Notes under the pieces: generated by a model
The model's database searches: none
The model's input: only the letters and a program-made list of their open reading frames with translations
Told to the model about the DNA's origin: nothing
Source: a virus
Taxonomy: Duplodnaviria; Heunggongvirae; Uroviricota; Caudoviricetes
Reading direction: 5' to 3' (one strand)
Length of the DNA: 7,082 bases
Virus record (IMG/VR): IMGVR_UViG_2695420821_000006
Position numbers and translations under genes: made by a program
Shown: positions 1,625 through 6,090 of the stretch, one piece after another
Layout: each line of letters begins with the position of its first letter
Numbering within the stretch: the stretch's first letter is position 1

Positions 1625-1972
1625 TTACAACATAGTCAGGGACGTAAGCAGTCTTTTAGGCTGCCGCCAGTCGATACCTTCCAGCAGCATCGCCAGCTGT
1701 GCCGGTGTGAGGAACACTTTGCCATCCCGGGCTGACGGCCAGGCGAAGCGGCCGCGCTCCAGCCGTTTGGTCAGCAGACACAGTCCATCGCCGGTAGACC
1801 AGAGGAGCTTTACCTGACTGCCATTACGCCCACGGAAGATAAAAACGTGACCTGACATCGGATCGTCTTTCAGCGTCGTCTGCACCTTTGCCGCCAGGCC
1901 GTTGAAGCCGTTTCTCATATCGGTGATGCCAGCGACCAGCCAGATCTTTGTCCCTGATGGTAATGGGATCAA
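1625..1972 (-). CDS. tnpB: IS66 Orf2 (TnpB-type accessory protein), 115 aa
   Basis: Translation MIPLPSGTKIWLVAGITDMRNGFNGLAAKVQ... has the characteristic IS66 Orf2 N-terminus; its start overlaps the tnpA stop by 4 bp. Confidence 0.85.
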   Translation of the reverse strand: MIPLPSGTKIWLVAGITDMRNGFNGLAAKVQTTLKDDPMSGHVFIFRGRNGSQVKLLWSTGDGLCLLTKRLERGRFAWPSARDGKVFLTPAQLAMLLEGIDWRQPKRLLTSLTML

Positions 1973-2373
1973 CGTTTGAGCTCCCGTATCAGCAGGTTCA
2001 GGATATTTTCGCTGATGGCACCATTCAGACGGAGTGATCCGTGCCGGAACGTCACTTCACAGCTGATATTGAGTGATTCAGGTGTCGCAGCAGCTACAGG
2101 TTGTGACCGGGGGGAGGTTGTAGGGACAACATCTTCGGCATCAAGTGTTATCGGGAGCAGCTCAGGCACGTTGTTTTCTGTTGTTGAAGGAGGACGTAGT
2201 TTTCCTTCGCGCCAGTACTGGCGCCACTTGAACAGCAAATTATCGTTGATCCCATGCTCACGAGCGAGTTGCGCTACGGAGATCTCTGGTCGATGCGAGA
2301 GTTCAACCATTTTGATTTTGAACTCAACGGGATAATTAGGGCTTTTTTTACGCACTGCGGTTAATGATTTCAT
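1969..2373 (-). CDS. tnpA: IS66 Orf1 (TnpA, helix-turn-helix transposase accessory protein), 134 aa
   Basis: N-terminal HTH-like region (EFKIKMVELSHRPEISVAQLAREHGINDNLLFKWRQ) typical of IS3/IS66 orfA proteins; first ORF inside the tnpA-proximal IR. Confidence 0.82.
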   Translation of the reverse strand: MKSLTAVRKKSPNYPVEFKIKMVELSHRPEISVAQLAREHGINDNLLFKWRQYWREGKLRPPSTTENNVPELLPITLDAEDVVPTTSPRSQPVAAATPESLNISCEVTFRHGSLRLNGAISENILNLLIRELKR

Positions 2374-2428
2374 GGATAGCGTCCACCATATTTGGTGTCC
2401 ACTATTCTCTCAGGAATTTCAGGATCTG

Positions 2429-2454
2429 CCAGACGGTGCTGAGACGACGCTTAC
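2429..2454. repeat. IS66 terminal inverted repeat (tnpA-proximal end)
   Basis: Reverse complement of 2429-2454 reads GTAAGCGTCGTCTCAGCACCGTCTGG, matching the pos 1-26 terminus in the first 8 nt and in later blocks. Confidence 0.55.
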
Positions 2455-2470
2455 AAATGGCGGTAGTGAA

Positions 2471-2653
2471 ATGCGAAAATTCAAAATAATTATTGAAACG
2501 GGAATAGCTGGTGGAGATTTTGAGGATGTATTCGAAGTAGATGATGACGCAACACCTGATGAAATTCATGACGAAGCAAAAGAAATTTTCTTTAACTACT
2601 GCAATTACTCATACCACGAAATAAAAGACGAAGAGGAAGGACAAAATGGCTGA
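2471..2653 (+). CDS. Small strongly acidic hypothetical protein (60 aa); first gene of the coupled operon
   Basis: ATG at 2471 is the first in-frame start outside the IS; the longer ORF-track call (2372..2653) begins inside the IS and is taken as read-through artefact. About 18 of 60 residues are D/E against 5 K/R. The stop overlaps the next start (ATGGCTGA). The RBS is weak (GGTAG). Confidence 0.5.
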   Translation: MRKFKIIIETGIAGGDFEDVFEVDDDATPDEIHDEAKEIFFNYCNYSYHEIKDEEEGQNG

Positions 2654-2822
2654 TTTTGGTTCAACTAAATATAACGCCAGTTTTGAAGAATGGCATGAAC
2701 TGTTAATGGATTATGCAGAGTTACGCGGTGGAAGTGCCGCTGATGCTGAAGCATGGCGTGATGATTATGAAGCAGGGAAAACTCCGGTCGAAGCATATTG
2801 TGATGAGTGGGGCGATGAATGA
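2646..2822 (+). CDS. Small strongly acidic hypothetical protein (58 aa)
   Basis: ORF MADFGSTKYNASFEEWHELLMDYAELRGGSAADAEAWRDDYEAGKTPVEAYCDEWGDE, below the ORF-track size cutoff. About 16 of 58 residues are D/E against 4 K/R. Its start overlaps the upstream stop and its stop overlaps the next start (ATGA at 2819-2822). Confidence 0.5.
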   Translation: MADFGSTKYNASFEEWHELLMDYAELRGGSAADAEAWRDDYEAGKTPVEAYCDEWGDE

Positions 2823-3178
2823 GCGAGATTAATTATCAGGAAGGGCATGAAAAGGCAGGGCAGGCAAAACCAGTGGCATGGCGATATCGCTACGTGAAAA
2901 AAGGCGTTACAGACTTTCAGGGGAAGCAGTGGGCTGGTGACTGGAAATATGTCCAGACAAAAGAAGATTGTAACGACAGACCGAACTATGAAATTCAGGC
3001 GTTATTCACGGCCCCGCCAGCCCCGGTGACATCAGAAGGACTAGTTAAAGCCGTGCGCTTTTATGAACAGGTAAAGCGTGAGAATCCACCCGTCGAAACA
3101 GGTGCATGGAAAGATGCTGTTGACTGGGTACTCAAAGAGGCTTGTCAGGTTGTAAACATTCGCATCAAAGGAGAATGA
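2819..3178 (+). CDS. Hypothetical protein, 119 aa (not recognised)
   Basis: Uninterrupted ORF with ATGA overlap to the upstream gene; the next gene starts 2 nt after its stop. W/Y-rich, no family recognised. Confidence 0.6.
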   Translation: MSEINYQEGHEKAGQAKPVAWRYRYVKKGVTDFQGKQWAGDWKYVQTKEDCNDRPNYEIQALFTAPPAPVTSEGLVKAVRFYEQVKRENPPVETGAWKDAVDWVLKEACQVVNIRIKGE

Positions 3179-3179
3179 G

Positions 3180-3695
3180 ATGGCGTTAACACACCGCGAA
3201 CTCTGTCAGATTGCCTACAGGTTCCTTAAGCGCAACGGGTTCAAGGTTTGCTTTCATGACCGCTTTGTTGCTGTAACCAGTACTGGAGAACAACCAGATG
3301 CTATGGGATTCAGAAATTCAGCATCATGCCTGATAGAGGCGAAGTGTTCTCGTGCTGACTTGTTGGCAGATAGAAAAAAGCGTTTCCGTAAAAATCCCTC
3401 TCTTGGCATGGGGGACTGGCGATTCTTTATTAGTGAGCCGGGAATTATTTCAATTGAGGATTTACCACCTGGCTGGGGATTACTTCACGTTGTTAACGGA
3501 AGAGTACGGAAAGTATATGGGTGGCCCAAGGGTAATTGCTGTTGGGGTAATCCTGACGATAAGCCATTTACCGGAAATAAGCAGGTTGAATGCGATTACA
3601 TGTTATCTGCATTAAGGCGCATGGAGTTGAGAGGGCACCTTAATGAAATATATGACGGTGTAATTGTTAATAAGAAAGAAGGAAACGCGGCATGA
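3180..3695 (+). CDS. Putative PD-(D/E)xK-fold nuclease-like protein (possibly MmcB-like), 171 aa
   Basis: Contains QPDAMGF followed about 12 residues later by LIEAKCSRADLLAD, i.e. a D ... E-x-K arrangement resembling the restriction-endonuclease-like catalytic motif. Family assignment is motif-based only. Confidence 0.6.
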   Translation: MALTHRELCQIAYRFLKRNGFKVCFHDRFVAVTSTGEQPDAMGFRNSASCLIEAKCSRADLLADRKKRFRKNPSLGMGDWRFFISEPGIISIEDLPPGWGLLHVVNGRVRKVYGWPKGNCCWGNPDDKPFTGNKQVECDYMLSALRRMELRGHLNEIYDGVIVNKKEGNAA

Positions 3696-4261
3696 TCACT
3701 ATTACCAAAGAGCGACTACTGACAATCAAGCAGTGGCGCGAAACATACGGACCTGGTAGCAACGTTGTGCTTCCAGCAGAAGAAGCGGAAGAGCTGGCAC
3801 GGATTGCACTGGCATCACTGGCAGCAGTATCGGATGAACGAGCAGCCTATGAATTATTTATGGAGAAGCGTTTCGGAGAATCTGTAGATCGCCGCAGAGC
3901 AAAAAATGGCGATAGAGAATACATGGCATGGGATATGGCGCTTGGCTGGATTATCTGGTGTCACCGCGCCGCCATGCTTCAGGCTGGAAACTTTCGGGAA
4001 CATAAGGGTTCGTCAACCAATAATTTTCGGGAAATCTCGGAAACGTCAACCAACCATCCGGTAACTCCGGATGGTTGGATAAGCTGTAGTGAGCGAATGC
4101 CGGATGACGGGCAGTGGTGCGTAGTGAACACAGAATACGGGTATTACGTGCAATGCTGGTCTGAAGGTCAAGGATGGCTTGGTGATGATATCAGCATCCC
4201 TGAATGCGATGTAATCAATCGGATGCTTCTACCTGAACCGCCGCAGAAGGTGCGCCAATGA
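3692..4261 (+). CDS. Phage-type protein with C-terminal DUF551-like domain, 189 aa
   Basis: C-terminus PDGWISCSERMPDDGQWCVVN...YYVQCW fits the W-I-S-x-x-(D/E)-R-(L/M)-P signature I associate with DUF551, which is common in lambdoid nin/early-region proteins. ATGA overlap with the upstream gene. The linker between domains contains a DNA-level repeat. Confidence 0.7.
   Translation: MITITKERLLTIKQWRETYGPGSNVVLPAEEAEELARIALASLAAVSDERAAYELFMEKRFGESVDRRRAKNGDREYMAWDMALGWIIWCHRAAMLQAGNFREHKGSSTNNFREISETSTNHPVTPDGWISCSERMPDDGQWCVVNTEYGYYVQCWSEGQGWLGDDISIPECDVINRMLLPEPPQKVRQ
3989..4053. repeat. Two imperfect ~32-bp direct repeats inside the DUF551 gene linker
   Basis: 3989-4020 AACTTTCGGGAACATAAGGGTTCGTCAACCAA and 4022-4053 AATTTTCGGGAAATCTCGGAAACGTCAACCAA; about 23 of 32 positions identical, with conserved TTCGGGAA and CGTCAACCAA ends. 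Encodes NFREHKGSSTN / NFREISETSTN. Confidence 0.7.
4050..4078. repeat. Perfect 12-bp inverted repeat with 5-bp spacer inside the DUF551 gene
   Basis: CCAACCATCCGG-TAACT-CCGGATGGTTGG; the arms are exact reverse complements. Located directly 3' of the direct repeats. Confidence 0.8.
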
Positions 4262-4341
4262 ACTGGCCTGAAGCATTTGCAATTACAGGCGTTGCTATGG
4301 CTATCGCTTTTTTAGTATATGTTATTTGTCGGTGGGGGTAA
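4258..4341 (+). CDS. Putative small hydrophobic peptide (27 aa)
   Basis: MNWPEAFAITGVAMAIAFLVYVICRWG; its start overlaps the stop of the DUF551 gene (ATGA), suggesting translational coupling. One predicted transmembrane helix. Too short for confident calling. Confidence 0.4.
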   Translation: MNWPEAFAITGVAMAIAFLVYVICRWG

Positions 4342-4376
4342 AAACGTTCGCCGGGATTAACACCAAAGGAGGGAAT

Positions 4377-4475
4377 ATGTCGGATGATATTTCACTGGCA
4401 ATGGAAGGCGCGCTGGCCGTTATTTCTGTTGTGGGCGTTTACTGCCTGGTTGTGTTTTTGATGGATCGGATGTGA
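4377..4475 (+). CDS. Putative small hydrophobic peptide (32 aa)
   Basis: MSDDISLAMEGALAVISVVGVYCLVVFLMDRM; preceded by a strong RBS AAGGAGGG (4366-4373) 4 nt before the ATG. One predicted transmembrane helix. Confidence 0.45.
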   Translation: MSDDISLAMEGALAVISVVGVYCLVVFLMDRM

Positions 4476-4522
4476 AACTGAATTCATTGCGATATGGGCA
4501 TTCCCATATCGGGTAAAACGGT

Positions 4523-4550
4523 TTGCGGTAAAGCGAGAGTTAAGTAGAAT
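4523..4550 (+). promoter_or_regulatory. Putative sigma70 promoter of the hok/mok mRNA
   Basis: TTGCGG (4523-4528), 16-nt spacer, TAGAAT (4545-4550); predicted start near 4557-4560, where the sequence (GGGTGCTTGAGGCTGTCTGCCTC...) resembles the 5' end of plasmid R1 hok mRNA as I recall it. Confidence 0.45.
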
Positions 4551-4556
4551 TGCTGC

Positions 4557-4568
4557 GGGTGCTTGAGG
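4557..4568 (+). promoter_or_regulatory. hok mRNA 5' element (tac-like) complementary to the 3' fbi-like element
   Basis: GGGTGCTTGAGG is complementary, with one bulge, to CCTCAACGCACCC at 4931-4943. It is followed by a 9-bp stem CTGTCTGCC / GGCAGACAG (4570-4578 with 4596-4604). Confidence 0.45.
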
Positions 4569-4609
4569 CTGTCTGCCTCGGGCATGCCGACGTAAGGCAG
4601 ACAGAGAAA

Positions 4610-4676
4610 AGCCCCAGTTAACATTATGCGTCTTGCAGGACGCTTAACATTAATCTGAGGCCATATCTATGACTTG
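4610..4676 (-). ncRNA. sok: Predicted Sok-like antisense RNA (approximate boundaries)
   Basis: A minus-strand promoter (features 4684-4712) would start transcription near 4676, giving an antisense RNA across the mok SD and start codon as in hok/sok systems. The 3' end is not defined; only a weak hairpin (GCGTC…GACGC) and a short T-run are visible. Confidence 0.4.
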
Positions 4677-4881
4677 CACACTTAGATTAGCCTCTTACGC
4701 GCCGAAAGGCAAGGAGCAGCAGGCTATGAAGCAGCAAAAGGCGATGCTAATCGCCCTGATCGTCATCTGTATTACCGTCGTTGTAACGGTACTGGTAACG
4801 AGGAAAGACCTCTGCGAGGTACGAATCCGAACCGGCCAGACGGAGGTCGCTGTCTTCACAGCTTACGAATCTGAGAAGTAA
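4669..4881 (+). CDS. mok: mok-type reading frame (70 codons) that includes the hok frame and shares its stop
   Basis: ATG at 4669 with SD GAGG (4657-4660); in frame with hok. The arrangement is as I recall for chromosomal mokC/hokC. This is the target region for the antisense RNA. Confidence 0.5.
   Translation: MTCTLRLASYAPKGKEQQAMKQQKAMLIALIVICITVVVTVLVTRKDLCEVRIRTGQTEVAVFTAYESEK
4684..4712 (-). promoter_or_regulatory. Putative sok promoter
   Basis: On the minus strand: TTGCCT (complement of 4707-4712), 17-nt spacer, TAATCT (complement of 4684-4689); it lies inside the start of the mok frame, as expected for sok. Confidence 0.4.
4726..4881 (+). CDS. hok: Hok/Gef-family type I toxin (small membrane killer protein), 51 aa
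   Basis: MKQQKAMLIALIVICITVVVTVLVTRKDLCEVRIRTGQTEVAVFTAYESEK aligns by eye with Hok (…[27 protein letters not shown]): one transmembrane helix followed by the conserved TRK-LCE-R…EVA-F-AYES-K tail. RBS AAGGAG at 4711-4716. Confidence 0.88.
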   Translation: MKQQKAMLIALIVICITVVVTVLVTRKDLCEVRIRTGQTEVAVFTAYESEK

Positions 4882-4930
4882 GAGACCCGGCGAGGGAGAA
4901 ATCCCTCGCCACCTCTGATGTGTCAGGCAT

Positions 4931-4943
4931 CCTCAACGCACCC
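4931..4943 (+). promoter_or_regulatory. fbi-like 3' element of hok mRNA
   Basis: CCTCAACGCACCC is complementary to the mRNA 5' end (4557-4568). It lies between a perfect 9-bp hairpin (GGCGAGGGA-GAAA-TCCCTCGCC, 4889-4910) and the terminator. Confidence 0.45.
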
Positions 4944-4951
4944 GCACTTAA

Positions 4952-4976
4952 CCCGCTTCTGCGGGTTTTGTTTTTT
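4952..4976 (+). terminator. Rho-independent terminator of the hok mRNA
   Basis: CCCGC-TTCT-GCGGG stem-loop (4952-4965) followed by TTTTGTTTTTT (4966-4976). Confidence 0.7.
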
Positions 4977-4997
4977 CTTGACATTCTGGTTTACAAT
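4968..4997 (+). promoter_or_regulatory. Possible weak promoter for the downstream ORF
   Basis: TTGTTT (4968-4973), 18-nt spacer, TACAAT (4992-4997). A perfect TTGACA at 4978-4983 is too close to that -10 element to be its -35. Speculative. Confidence 0.25.
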
Positions 4998-5047
4998 TCG
5001 CACGCCAGCCTGAACAACTGGCACCTGCTGTGTCACCGGAGAACCCG

Positions 5048-5239
5048 ATGGCGCAACGTATAAAATCCCACAATTCTGAAGCCGTCCCGGCCATTAAGCG
5101 GGGGCGGCATTCGCACGTATTTAAAACCGACTGGTACCAGCATCCCCCATGCACTGAAGAACAGGCCGAATGGCTGATTCAGTGTTACCGCAGGCGCGGA
5201 TATTGGTGTGTCACGTTAACCGGAAAAAGGAAAGTTTGA
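5048..5239 (+). CDS. Hypothetical 63-aa ORF, possibly the 5' part of a frameshifted gene continuing into the TerB-like frame
   Basis: ATG at 5048 with RBS GGAGA (5038-5042); the ORF track starts it at an upstream GTG (5030). It ends at TGA 5237-5239, directly after an A5 run (5224-5228) where a +1 shift would enter the TerB-like frame. Confidence 0.3.
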   Translation: MAQRIKSHNSEAVPAIKRGRHSHVFKTDWYQHPPCTEEQAEWLIQCYRRRGYWCVTLTGKRKV

Positions 5240-5612
5240 GAAACGCGATCTGGCACAGGCGGTGATTAACGCCGCATACCTGGTGGCCTGTGCAGATGGT
5301 GAATGTGAGGCTTCCTAGAAAGCGAAGATCGAACAGGTACTGCGTAATCAGCCTGCGCTGTACGCGTTTACGTCAGAAATTAATGCGATTAGCGCAACCA
5401 TTATCGGTCAGCTGGATACGAACTTTAAAACTGGTCGTCGTGCGGCGTTACGTGAGATCGAGGATGTGAAACACGATACGCGTGAAGCGGAAGATGTGCT
5501 GGATGTGGCGGTGGCCATTGCGGAGGCAGACGGCGAAATTGAGCCGGAAGAGCGCAAGGTGCTGGAAGAGATTGCCGGTGTTCTGGGTCTTCGTCTGGAG
5601 AATTACCTGTGA
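5220..5612 (+). pseudogene. TerB-family (tellurite-resistance TerB-like domain) gene, apparently disrupted
   Basis: The frame reads …AQAVINAAYLVACADGECEAS*KAKIEQVL…VAIAEADGEIEPEERKVLEEIAGVLGLRLENYL*, i.e. two ADG-x5-E-x-(K/R) repeats typical of TerB-like domains. There is an in-frame TAG at 5316-5318 (probably from GAG), a TAA at 5217-5219 just upstream, and no ATG/GTG start before the domain. Confidence 0.55.
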
Positions 5613-5776
5613 CGGTAAAACTGCGCCTGACTGTGGCTGCACTCCTGCTGTTTCTGGTGGTGATGGTGGATTTCACCAGCAGAATCATGTCGGTGCTGGC
5701 GGATGGGGTGCTGGTCTGCGGCATTATGGTATTGCTGTGGCCGGTGATAAAAAGAAACAGCCTGCATAATGCTTGA
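5609..5776 (+). CDS. Putative small membrane protein (about 55 aa, GTG start) coupled to the TerB-like frame
   Basis: GTG at 5609 overlaps the TerB-frame stop (GTGA). Translation (M)TVKLRLTVAALLLFLVVMVDFTSRIMSVLADGVLVCGIMVLLWPVIKRNSLHNA is hydrophobic with two potential helices. Followed by a T-rich stretch (5777-5790). An alternative ATG start is at 5663. Confidence 0.3.
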   Translation: MTVKLRLTVAALLLFLVVMVDFTSRIMSVLADGVLVCGIMVLLWPVIKRNSLHNA

Positions 5777-6090
5777 TTTTTTTGTTTGCTGTTTATTAAA
5801 AACACTTCTGCATGGTGAATCCCCCTGTGCGGTGGGGCAATCAGCAAGAAGGAATATGGGGTAATCGCGGATTCAGGTGCTGATACTGAATTCACCGGGA
5901 GGCACCCGGCACCATGCTTTGCCACAAAAGTGTTATTTCTGTTTTTCTCAAACTATCATCGTTATCCCTTTATTTTCGGCTGCGCATGGCGCGGCCTTTT
6001 TTTTACGACCAGCCACTGGCAGATGGTCATCCTGTGATTTGATTCCGCTTCCGGCTTTTTAACTCTGTTCCTCTACACGGGAGAAATTCG

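Follow-up and report, generated by a model that had tools for sequence, protein, structure and literature searches.

A rare mosaic block in the nin-type position of a degraded lambdoid Escherichia coli prophage carries a conserved pair of small acidic proteins

The IMG/VR virus record IMGVR_UViG_2695420821_000006 (Caudoviricetes) is a stretch of 7,082 nucleotides (nt), called the window here, in which seven consecutive open reading frames (ORFs), P1 to P7, lie on one strand between positions 2471 and 4475. The initial annotation, made from the sequence alone, regarded this block as a seven-gene operon headed by two tiny acidic proteins and as a candidate undescribed anti-defence or DNA-mimic cassette of a lambdoid prophage. 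The locus therefore raises two questions: whether the seven genes form a dedicated system, and what the two acidic proteins may do. We find that the block occupies the nin-region position of a lambdoid (Qin/Stx-type, Stx denoting Shiga toxin) Escherichia coli prophage, and that its seven genes form a rare mosaic, whose modules can each be exchanged on their own, rather than a single machine of seven components. As an overall explanation, the block is very probably the replication-proximal part of a nin-type accessory region of such a prophage. The ORFs, with coordinates re-checked, are:

2471-2653, + strand: P1, 60 amino acids, acidic, Pfam family DUF7167
2646-2822, + strand: P2, 58 amino acids, acidic, phrog_519, without a Pfam family
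2819-3178, + strand: P3, 119 amino acids, phrog_660, in the Ea22-like gene slot
3180-3695, + strand: P4, 171 amino acids, basic, with a PD-(D/E)xK-type motif
3692-4261, + strand: P5, 189 amino acids, with a C-terminal DUF551 domain
4258-4341, + strand: P6, 27 amino acids, hydrophobic peptide ORF
4377-4475, + strand: P7, 32 amino acids, hydrophobic peptide ORF behind AAGGAGGG

P1 and P2 share an 8-nt overlap (ATGGCTGA, 2646-2653), ATGA overlaps join P2 to P3 at 2819, P4 to P5 at 3692 and P5 to P6 at 4258, and a single nucleotide (3179) separates P3 from P4. Five of the six junctions in the block are thus overlapping or have a 1-nt gap. P7 follows P6 after 35 base pairs (bp), and its ribosome-binding site, which had been described in front of the seventh gene, is present as AAGGAGGG. 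The coordinates, the overlaps, the 1-nt gap and the 35-bp gap given by the initial annotation were all exact.

The position of the block was established from three intact relatives, E. coli STEC434 (L001), phage vB_EcoM-606R7 (L002) and strain PS1Thumoskin9 (L003). In these, cro, YdaT, O/P-type replication genes, DUF1627, DUF977 and DUF4406 lie upstream of the block, and hok, DUF968, RusA and Q lie downstream, a DUF1133 protein replacing Q in L001. The same position was found in all 80 IMG/VR loci, retrieved with a DUF7167 alignment, wherever the contig extends far enough. The nin-type arrangement, rightward from the O/P-type replication genes to Q, is therefore present in the three relatives and in every sufficiently long IMG/VR locus, and the assignment of the segment to a lambdoid prophage is borne out. 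The proposed anti-defence cassette does not agree with this position: the delayed-early nin region, which follows the replication genes, is not a defence or anti-defence island. In a search with the PADLOC defence models, P1 to P6 gave no match and P7 only a chance-level one (Cmr5, E 0.029).

The comparison with the lambda nin region extends beyond the map position between the replication genes and Q seen in the intact relatives. Both have short ORFs that are linked in series through ATGA-type overlaps (10 of the 11 junctions from O to Q overlap in lambda), several products of about 60 amino acids (NinD, NinE, NinF and NinH have 56-68), junction-specific nucleases nearby (Rap in lambda, RusA in the relatives of the block), and a dispensable, strongly mosaic content. 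Translational coupling through stop/start overlaps had been singled out in the initial annotation, and the junctions are as it described; given the overlapping junctions and small proteins of lambda, however, coupled tiny ORFs are ordinary here and no mark of a special system. By analogy with lambda biology, the block would be read in an intact phage within the long delayed-early rightward transcript, and ribosomes would be handed on along the small genes at the stop/start overlaps. The gene families differ from those of lambda, being DUF7167, PHROG 519, an Ea22-slot protein, a PD-(D/E)xK protein and DUF551. No Nin family (NinB to NinI) was found when P1 to P5 were compared with Pfam at E-values up to 0.1, and the likeness is positional and organisational only. 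A further difference is that the copy in the window is isolated by an IS66-family insertion and by the deletion of Q.

How much of the block stays together was assessed by gene-order counts in the 79 loci with room downstream of P1. P2 comes immediately after P1 in all 79, and the ATGGCTGA junction is identical in 77 of them. P3 is the next gene in 63 loci, and an Ea22-like variant in about nine. Further genes of the block are found downstream of P1-P2 much less often (P4 in 11 loci, P5 in seven and P7 in four), and these counts do not sustain the seven-gene operon as a unit. The fixed unit is P1-P2 plus the start of the Ea22-slot gene (N-terminus MSEI...), and the remainder is interchangeable. 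Among E. coli complete genomes, none contains the window in full, and positions 2374-4660 are covered to 80% or more in just a single record. The unit can also be found elsewhere on the phage map: in the Stx phage ArgO145, a trio of P1, P2 and an Ea22-like gene lies in the leftward exo-xis region, between exo/ssb and int. The junction goes with P2, as the DUF1187 gene upstream of the P2-like gene in IncI2 plasmids has the same ...ATGGCTGA overlap. Of 5426 complete E. coli genomes, 1930 (about a third) contain the P1-P2 DNA. Exact copies of P1 to P5 are found in public data, on between 57 and more than 1000 contigs of E. coli, under the names hypothetical, DUF7167 or DUF551. The cassette can therefore not be called undescribed, P1 being DUF7167, P2 PHROG 519 and P3 PHROG 660. 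The ORF of P6 is kept in relatives, with no annotation in any relative examined, and P7-like ORFs are annotated there as a hypothetical protein (34 amino acids).

P1 and P2 are real genes under strong purifying selection. The ratio of nonsynonymous to synonymous polymorphism (pN/pS), calculated from the 80 related loci, is 0.07 for P1 (37 alleles) and 0.09 for P2 (34 alleles). Both products are small and strongly acidic, as first noted: P1 has 18 Asp and Glu among its 60 residues (30.0%), five Lys and Arg (8.3%), a net charge of -13 and an isoelectric point of 4.1; the corresponding values for P2 are 16 of 58 (27.6%), four (6.9%), -12 and 4.05. The acidity is retained in DUF7167 (net -10 to -14) down to 41% identity, and in the P2 family (net -4 to -15) down to 32% identity. 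P1 matches DUF7167 (PF23768) over the full profile (1-60) with 53.5 bits, the cut-off being 24.4, and phrog_1997 with an E-value of 1.4e-30. P2 has no Pfam family and matches phrog_519 at E 8.5e-23; a HMMER search of 1.84 billion representative proteins returned 61 relatives of P2, nearly all of them stand-alone proteins of 50-65 amino acids. Sequence and profile searches of Pfam, NCBIfam, PHROGs, PADLOC and the PDB connected P1 and P2 only to families without an assigned function, and a literature search found no mention of DUF7167, DUF1187 or the accession numbers, while PHROG 519 came up twice, in descriptions of phage genomes.

This composition is the starting point for the explanation that P1 and P2 are DNA-mimic anti-restriction proteins, or other anti-defence proteins, by which restriction enzymes, BREX, RecBCD or similar systems would be blocked. 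With Ocr (T7 gp0.3) and ArdA they share strong acidity with few basic residues, carriage by phages and conjugative plasmids, and probably early expression, and it is in favour of the explanation that a content of 28-30% Asp and Glu and net charges of -12 and -13 are accompanied by acidity across diverged homologues. The resemblance does not extend to sequence or fold. No match to a known anti-defence family was found in Pfam, the annotated PHROGs, PADLOC or the PDB sequences, and P1 and P2, at about half the size of Ocr and ArdA or less, are very small as monomers for a DNA mimic unless they oligomerise. The AlphaFold2 (AF2) models predict a beta-beta-alpha-beta fold for P1 (predicted local distance difference test, pLDDT, 75) and a three-helix bundle for P2 (pLDDT 70). 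Ocr and ArdA are elongated helical dimers, unlike either prediction, and both are absent from the fold-match lists of the two models. Foldseek comparison of the models with BFVD gave uncharacterised phage proteins only; the profile and structure searches that the initial annotation had proposed as a check thus tie neither protein to a characterised one. Of the DNA-mimic proposal, the acidic composition stood, as a property of both families, while homology to Ocr, ArdA and anti-CRISPRs failed in sequence, profile and fold searches. Homology to scaffold, chaperone or other housekeeping proteins, named at the outset as evidence against an anti-defence role, did not turn up for P1 or P2 either.

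The weak fold matches of P1 include the small phage inhibitors T7 Gp2, Dmd and AcrIE2, which counts in favour of an anti-defence function. For Gp2, a small acidic inhibitor of the host RNA polymerase, the resemblance is one of shape class only, and many unrelated ferredoxin-like domains score equally. An hhalign comparison of DUF7167 with Gp2 gave a probability of 0.3%; this speaks against the anti-defence explanation, and homology of P1 to Gp2 is not supported. A further point against anti-defence is that P1-P2 come after the replication genes instead of leading the early transcript.

The distribution of homologues in other mobile elements bears on the same question. Outside lambdoid phages, P1 and P2 are found without each other. 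DUF7167 occurs in a Klebsiella temperate phage, again after replication genes, and in an Enterococcus phage of the Herelleviridae. For P2, a tblastn search identified 198 phage records, most of them from virulent, Vi01-like members of the Ackermannviridae that infect Salmonella and Klebsiella. A copy of P2 with 91% protein identity is present in approximately 430 conjugative plasmid records, mainly IncI2. The plasmids inspected were R721 and the mcr-1 plasmid pG3216, both IncI2, with the P2 copy at the following loci:

pG3216 (L094), 11793-12177: locus of the P2 copy
R721 (L095), 1090-1474: locus of the P2 copy

The IncI2 gene order is a CaiF/GrlA-like regulator, DUF1187, the P2-like gene, SPFH and NfeD, followed by type IV secretion system (T4SS) genes. 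In pG3216 the P2 copy is approximately the 26th ORF listed in the incomplete PLSDB gene table from the presumed, unmapped origin of transfer (oriT), on the side opposite to the relaxase and mobC. It lies about 15 kb from the presumed oriT, beyond repA, at the head of the SPFH/NfeD/T4SS run. A zone of about 30 ORFs from oriT has been described as enriched for anti-defence genes (PMC11541004), and a count from the presumed oriT weakly suggests that the pG3216 copy falls inside it. This count, away from the relaxase, and the sharing of P2 among temperate phages, virulent phages and the mainly IncI2 plasmids favour an anti-defence function; the location beyond repA, at the head of a run of SPFH, NfeD and T4SS genes and relative to an oriT that is itself presumed, argues against it. 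The status of the IncI2 copy as a plasmid leading-region gene is ambiguous. On the whole, we consider it unlikely that P1 and P2 are anti-defence proteins in this sense.

The reading that we prefer is more general. P1 and P2 are very small acidic proteins, each of a single domain and lacking a catalytic motif, and they may bind a host protein stoichiometrically and thereby inhibit or modulate it. The target could be a nucleic-acid-binding host protein, and the purpose could be host takeover, the lysis-lysogeny balance or counter-defence. A host-directed role is plausible because the acidity is conserved, P2 is found in temperate phages, virulent phages and IncI2 plasmids, and DUF7167 is found in unrelated phage groups. 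Based on size, composition and distribution, this general binding reading is put forward tentatively, as a real possibility that falls somewhat short of an even chance. DNA mimicry of the Ocr/ArdA kind would be a specific and less likely version of it, and a very unlikely one. It is also doubtful that P1-P2 are a pair of small acidic effectors neutralising a host nucleic-acid-binding protein or an immune component, with P2 as a general establishment or counter-defence factor of enterobacterial mobile elements, common to lambdoid prophages, virulent Ackermannviridae-type phages and IncI2 (mcr-1-type) plasmids. The readings of P1 and P2 weighed in this work overlap, and their probabilities are not meant to sum.

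Several observations weigh against a host-directed binding role. The searches made gave no homology that would provide P1, P2 or P3 with a function, and the AF2 models of P1 and P2 are of moderate confidence only (pLDDT 70-75). The P2 homologue of the Vi01-like phages directly follows the major capsid gene, and this is not obviously an early position. Finally, in Guernseyvirinae phages of Klebsiella the DUF7167 gene overlaps the start of a 454-amino-acid exonuclease gene in the replication module, at a locus between the helicase-primase gene and the genes for single-stranded DNA-binding protein (SSB) and DNA polymerase (L004 and L005, 4001-5525). With this arrangement, an accessory role in DNA metabolism fits as well as a host-directed one, and P1 and/or P2 could be accessory subunits or regulators of phage replication or recombination enzymes, for example as partners or inhibitors of a probable nuclease such as P4 or of an exonuclease. 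This explanation is consistent with the Guernseyvirinae locus, with Morganella phage Mecenats66, where the P2 homologue lies two genes upstream of rdgC, and with the lambdoid prophages, where P1-P2 immediately follow the replication genes and precede those for nucleases. It is hard to reconcile with the presence of P4 in only 11 of the 79 loci with P1-P2, with the IncI2 plasmids, in which P2 adjoins genes for SPFH and NfeD membrane proteins and not DNA enzymes, and with the separate occurrence of P1 and P2 outside lambdoid phages, and we regard it as quite unlikely. Two labels in these phages deserve comment. A Guernseyvirinae record mislabels its 55-amino-acid DUF7167 protein as 'PD-(D/E)XK phosphodiesterase', and the label 'DUF5419' on the Morganella phage P2 homologue was rejected, since a Pfam scan at E-values up to 10 gave no such match.

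The neighbourhood of P1-P2 raises a further explanation, in which the two are developmental modulators of the exo-xis kind, similar to lambda Orf60a, Orf61, Orf63, Ea8.5 and Ea22, that tune lysis-lysogeny or host physiology. The lambda exo-xis region also consists of tiny overlapping early ORFs of about 60 amino acids whose mechanism is not understood, and in ArgO145 the P1-P2 pair is located in that region beside Ea22-like genes. P3 and P5 add to the resemblance. P3, which matches phrog_660 (E 1.8e-45) and has no Pfam match, fills the slot taken by Ea22-like genes in related phages, and shares with lambda Ea22 only the termini, MSEINYQ... (MSEIN.Q) and ...IRIKGE. The similarity to Ea22-like proteins is confined to the first 7-23 and the last 6-29 residues. 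The shared P3/Ea22 ends are located as follows:

window, 2819-2840: shared start
window, 3158-3178: shared end
L009, 1048-1596: the corresponding locus

P5 contains DUF551 (PF04448, residues 128-185) with 28.9 bits against a cut-off of 22, in agreement with the initial annotation. The Ea22 V2 variant and YfdS contain this domain too (PMC10834534), and among DUF551 proteins P5 is of the Ea22/YfdS kind. In the linker ahead of this domain, an internal 33-nt tandem duplication (3989-4053, copies 72% identical) encodes NFREHKGSSTN and NFREISETSTN. Against an exo-xis role, comparison of P1 and P2 with Orf60a (DUF1317), Orf61 and Orf63 (DUF1382) gave no sequence similarity, and these three were rejected as relatives. 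P3 also differs, as a Pfam scan did not find the Ead_Ea22 coiled-coil signature (PF13935) in it, and the copy in the window lies in the rightward and not the leftward operon. Virulent phages and plasmids make no choice between lysis and lysogeny, and the homologues that they carry point to a broader function. We therefore judge it improbable that P1 and P2 are modulators of this kind. The ends that P3 shares with Ea22 suggest that such gene ends act as conserved joints for mosaic recombination, between which the gene bodies are swapped.

P4 had been described as nuclease-like, and its comparison with relatives upholds this. The motif GEQPD ... LIExK-SR-D is present, and D40, E53 and K55 are invariant in 29 homologues with 59-88% identity. 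The family is large, occurring in Enterobacterales genomes and prophage-like contigs, and has no Pfam model. P4 matches phrog_9263 and phrog_631 and, below threshold, phrog_5429 ('DNA repair protein') at E 0.003. With the archaeal Hjc and MmcB-like PD-(D/E)xK nucleases it has in common the D ... E-x-K core followed by S-R-x-D. It differs in that all profile matches fall below the family thresholds, in a comparison made from sequence alone: the Hjc model PF01870 matches 13 of the 29 family members weakly (best E 0.0029, below threshold), and the P4 profile aligns to the motif region of 3dnx at a sub-threshold E of 0.2. Against the PDB, single-sequence and profile searches were both sub-threshold. 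P4 is probably a PD-(D/E)xK nuclease of an uncharacterised prophage family, and would act on phage or host DNA structures, like Rap and RusA of the same region.

The flanks of the block show what has become of the prophage in the window. They contain the following features:

1-2454, - strand: right-hand part of an IS66-family element, from its ORFs and the annotation of matching E. coli records
38-1576, - strand: tnpC, within the IS66-family element
1625-1972, - strand: tnpB, within the IS66-family element
1969-2373, - strand: tnpA, within the IS66-family element
4557-4881, + strand: hok/sok type I toxin-antitoxin locus (Rfam sok, Pfam HOK_GEF)
5203-5230, no strand: deletion joint, from alignment to the intact prophage L003

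In the matching E. coli records the insertion sequence (IS) is annotated as an IS66-family element, ISEc8/ISEc22 (tnpA, tnpB, transposase). Its terminal sequence ...GACGCTTAC stops at 2454, the other end being outside the window, and homology to intact phages begins at 2455, 16 bp ahead of the P1 start codon. The insertion separates the block from the early promoter and from the replication genes on its upstream side. On the other side, alignment with L003 pairs window positions 4221-5202 with L003 7089-8078, and 5231-7082 with L003 10986-12837. Approximately 2.9 kb are gone relative to L003, including DUF968, RusA, Q and three tRNA genes, and past the joint the window goes from just after hok to a TerB-family remnant. 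With Q deleted, the prophage is no longer able to turn on its late genes. The prophage in the window is therefore degraded, by the IS66-family insertion and the deletion of the Q region. The block has lost its native promoter connection, and a scan of positions 1900-5300 revealed no sigma-70-like site on the + strand; the block may be silent in the window.

The hok/sok locus, which usually adjoins the block on its downstream side in related prophages, was identified by an Rfam match to sok (114.8 bits, 4557-4731) and a Pfam match of Hok to HOK_GEF (E 3.9e-23), and a terminator scan placed a terminator-like hairpin after it, at 4950-4967. The conserved short hydrophobic ORFs of P6 and P7 (27 and 32 amino acids, 4258-4475) lie directly upstream of the hok toxin gene. 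Beyond the deletion joint are the TerB-family remnant ORF (5466-5612), a small ORF (5609-5776) that corresponds to DUF3927 in relatives, and an Rfam match to the small RNA STnc100 (5781-5953, 100.8 bits). A long ORF from about 6091 leaves the window; it is DUF6645 in L003, and other matching records place a SASA-family esterase in this region.

Overall, the accessory region described here is a mosaic typical of its kind, in an E. coli prophage that is decaying, and its proteins have all been catalogued before as hypothetical. The useful leads are the P1-P2 pair, acidic, conserved and carried by about one third of complete E. coli genomes, and the close copy of P2 in the IncI2 plasmids that spread mcr-1. 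If P1 and P2 do inhibit a host defence or DNA-binding protein, they would be a widespread addition to the establishment functions of phages and plasmids, and one that is easily tested.

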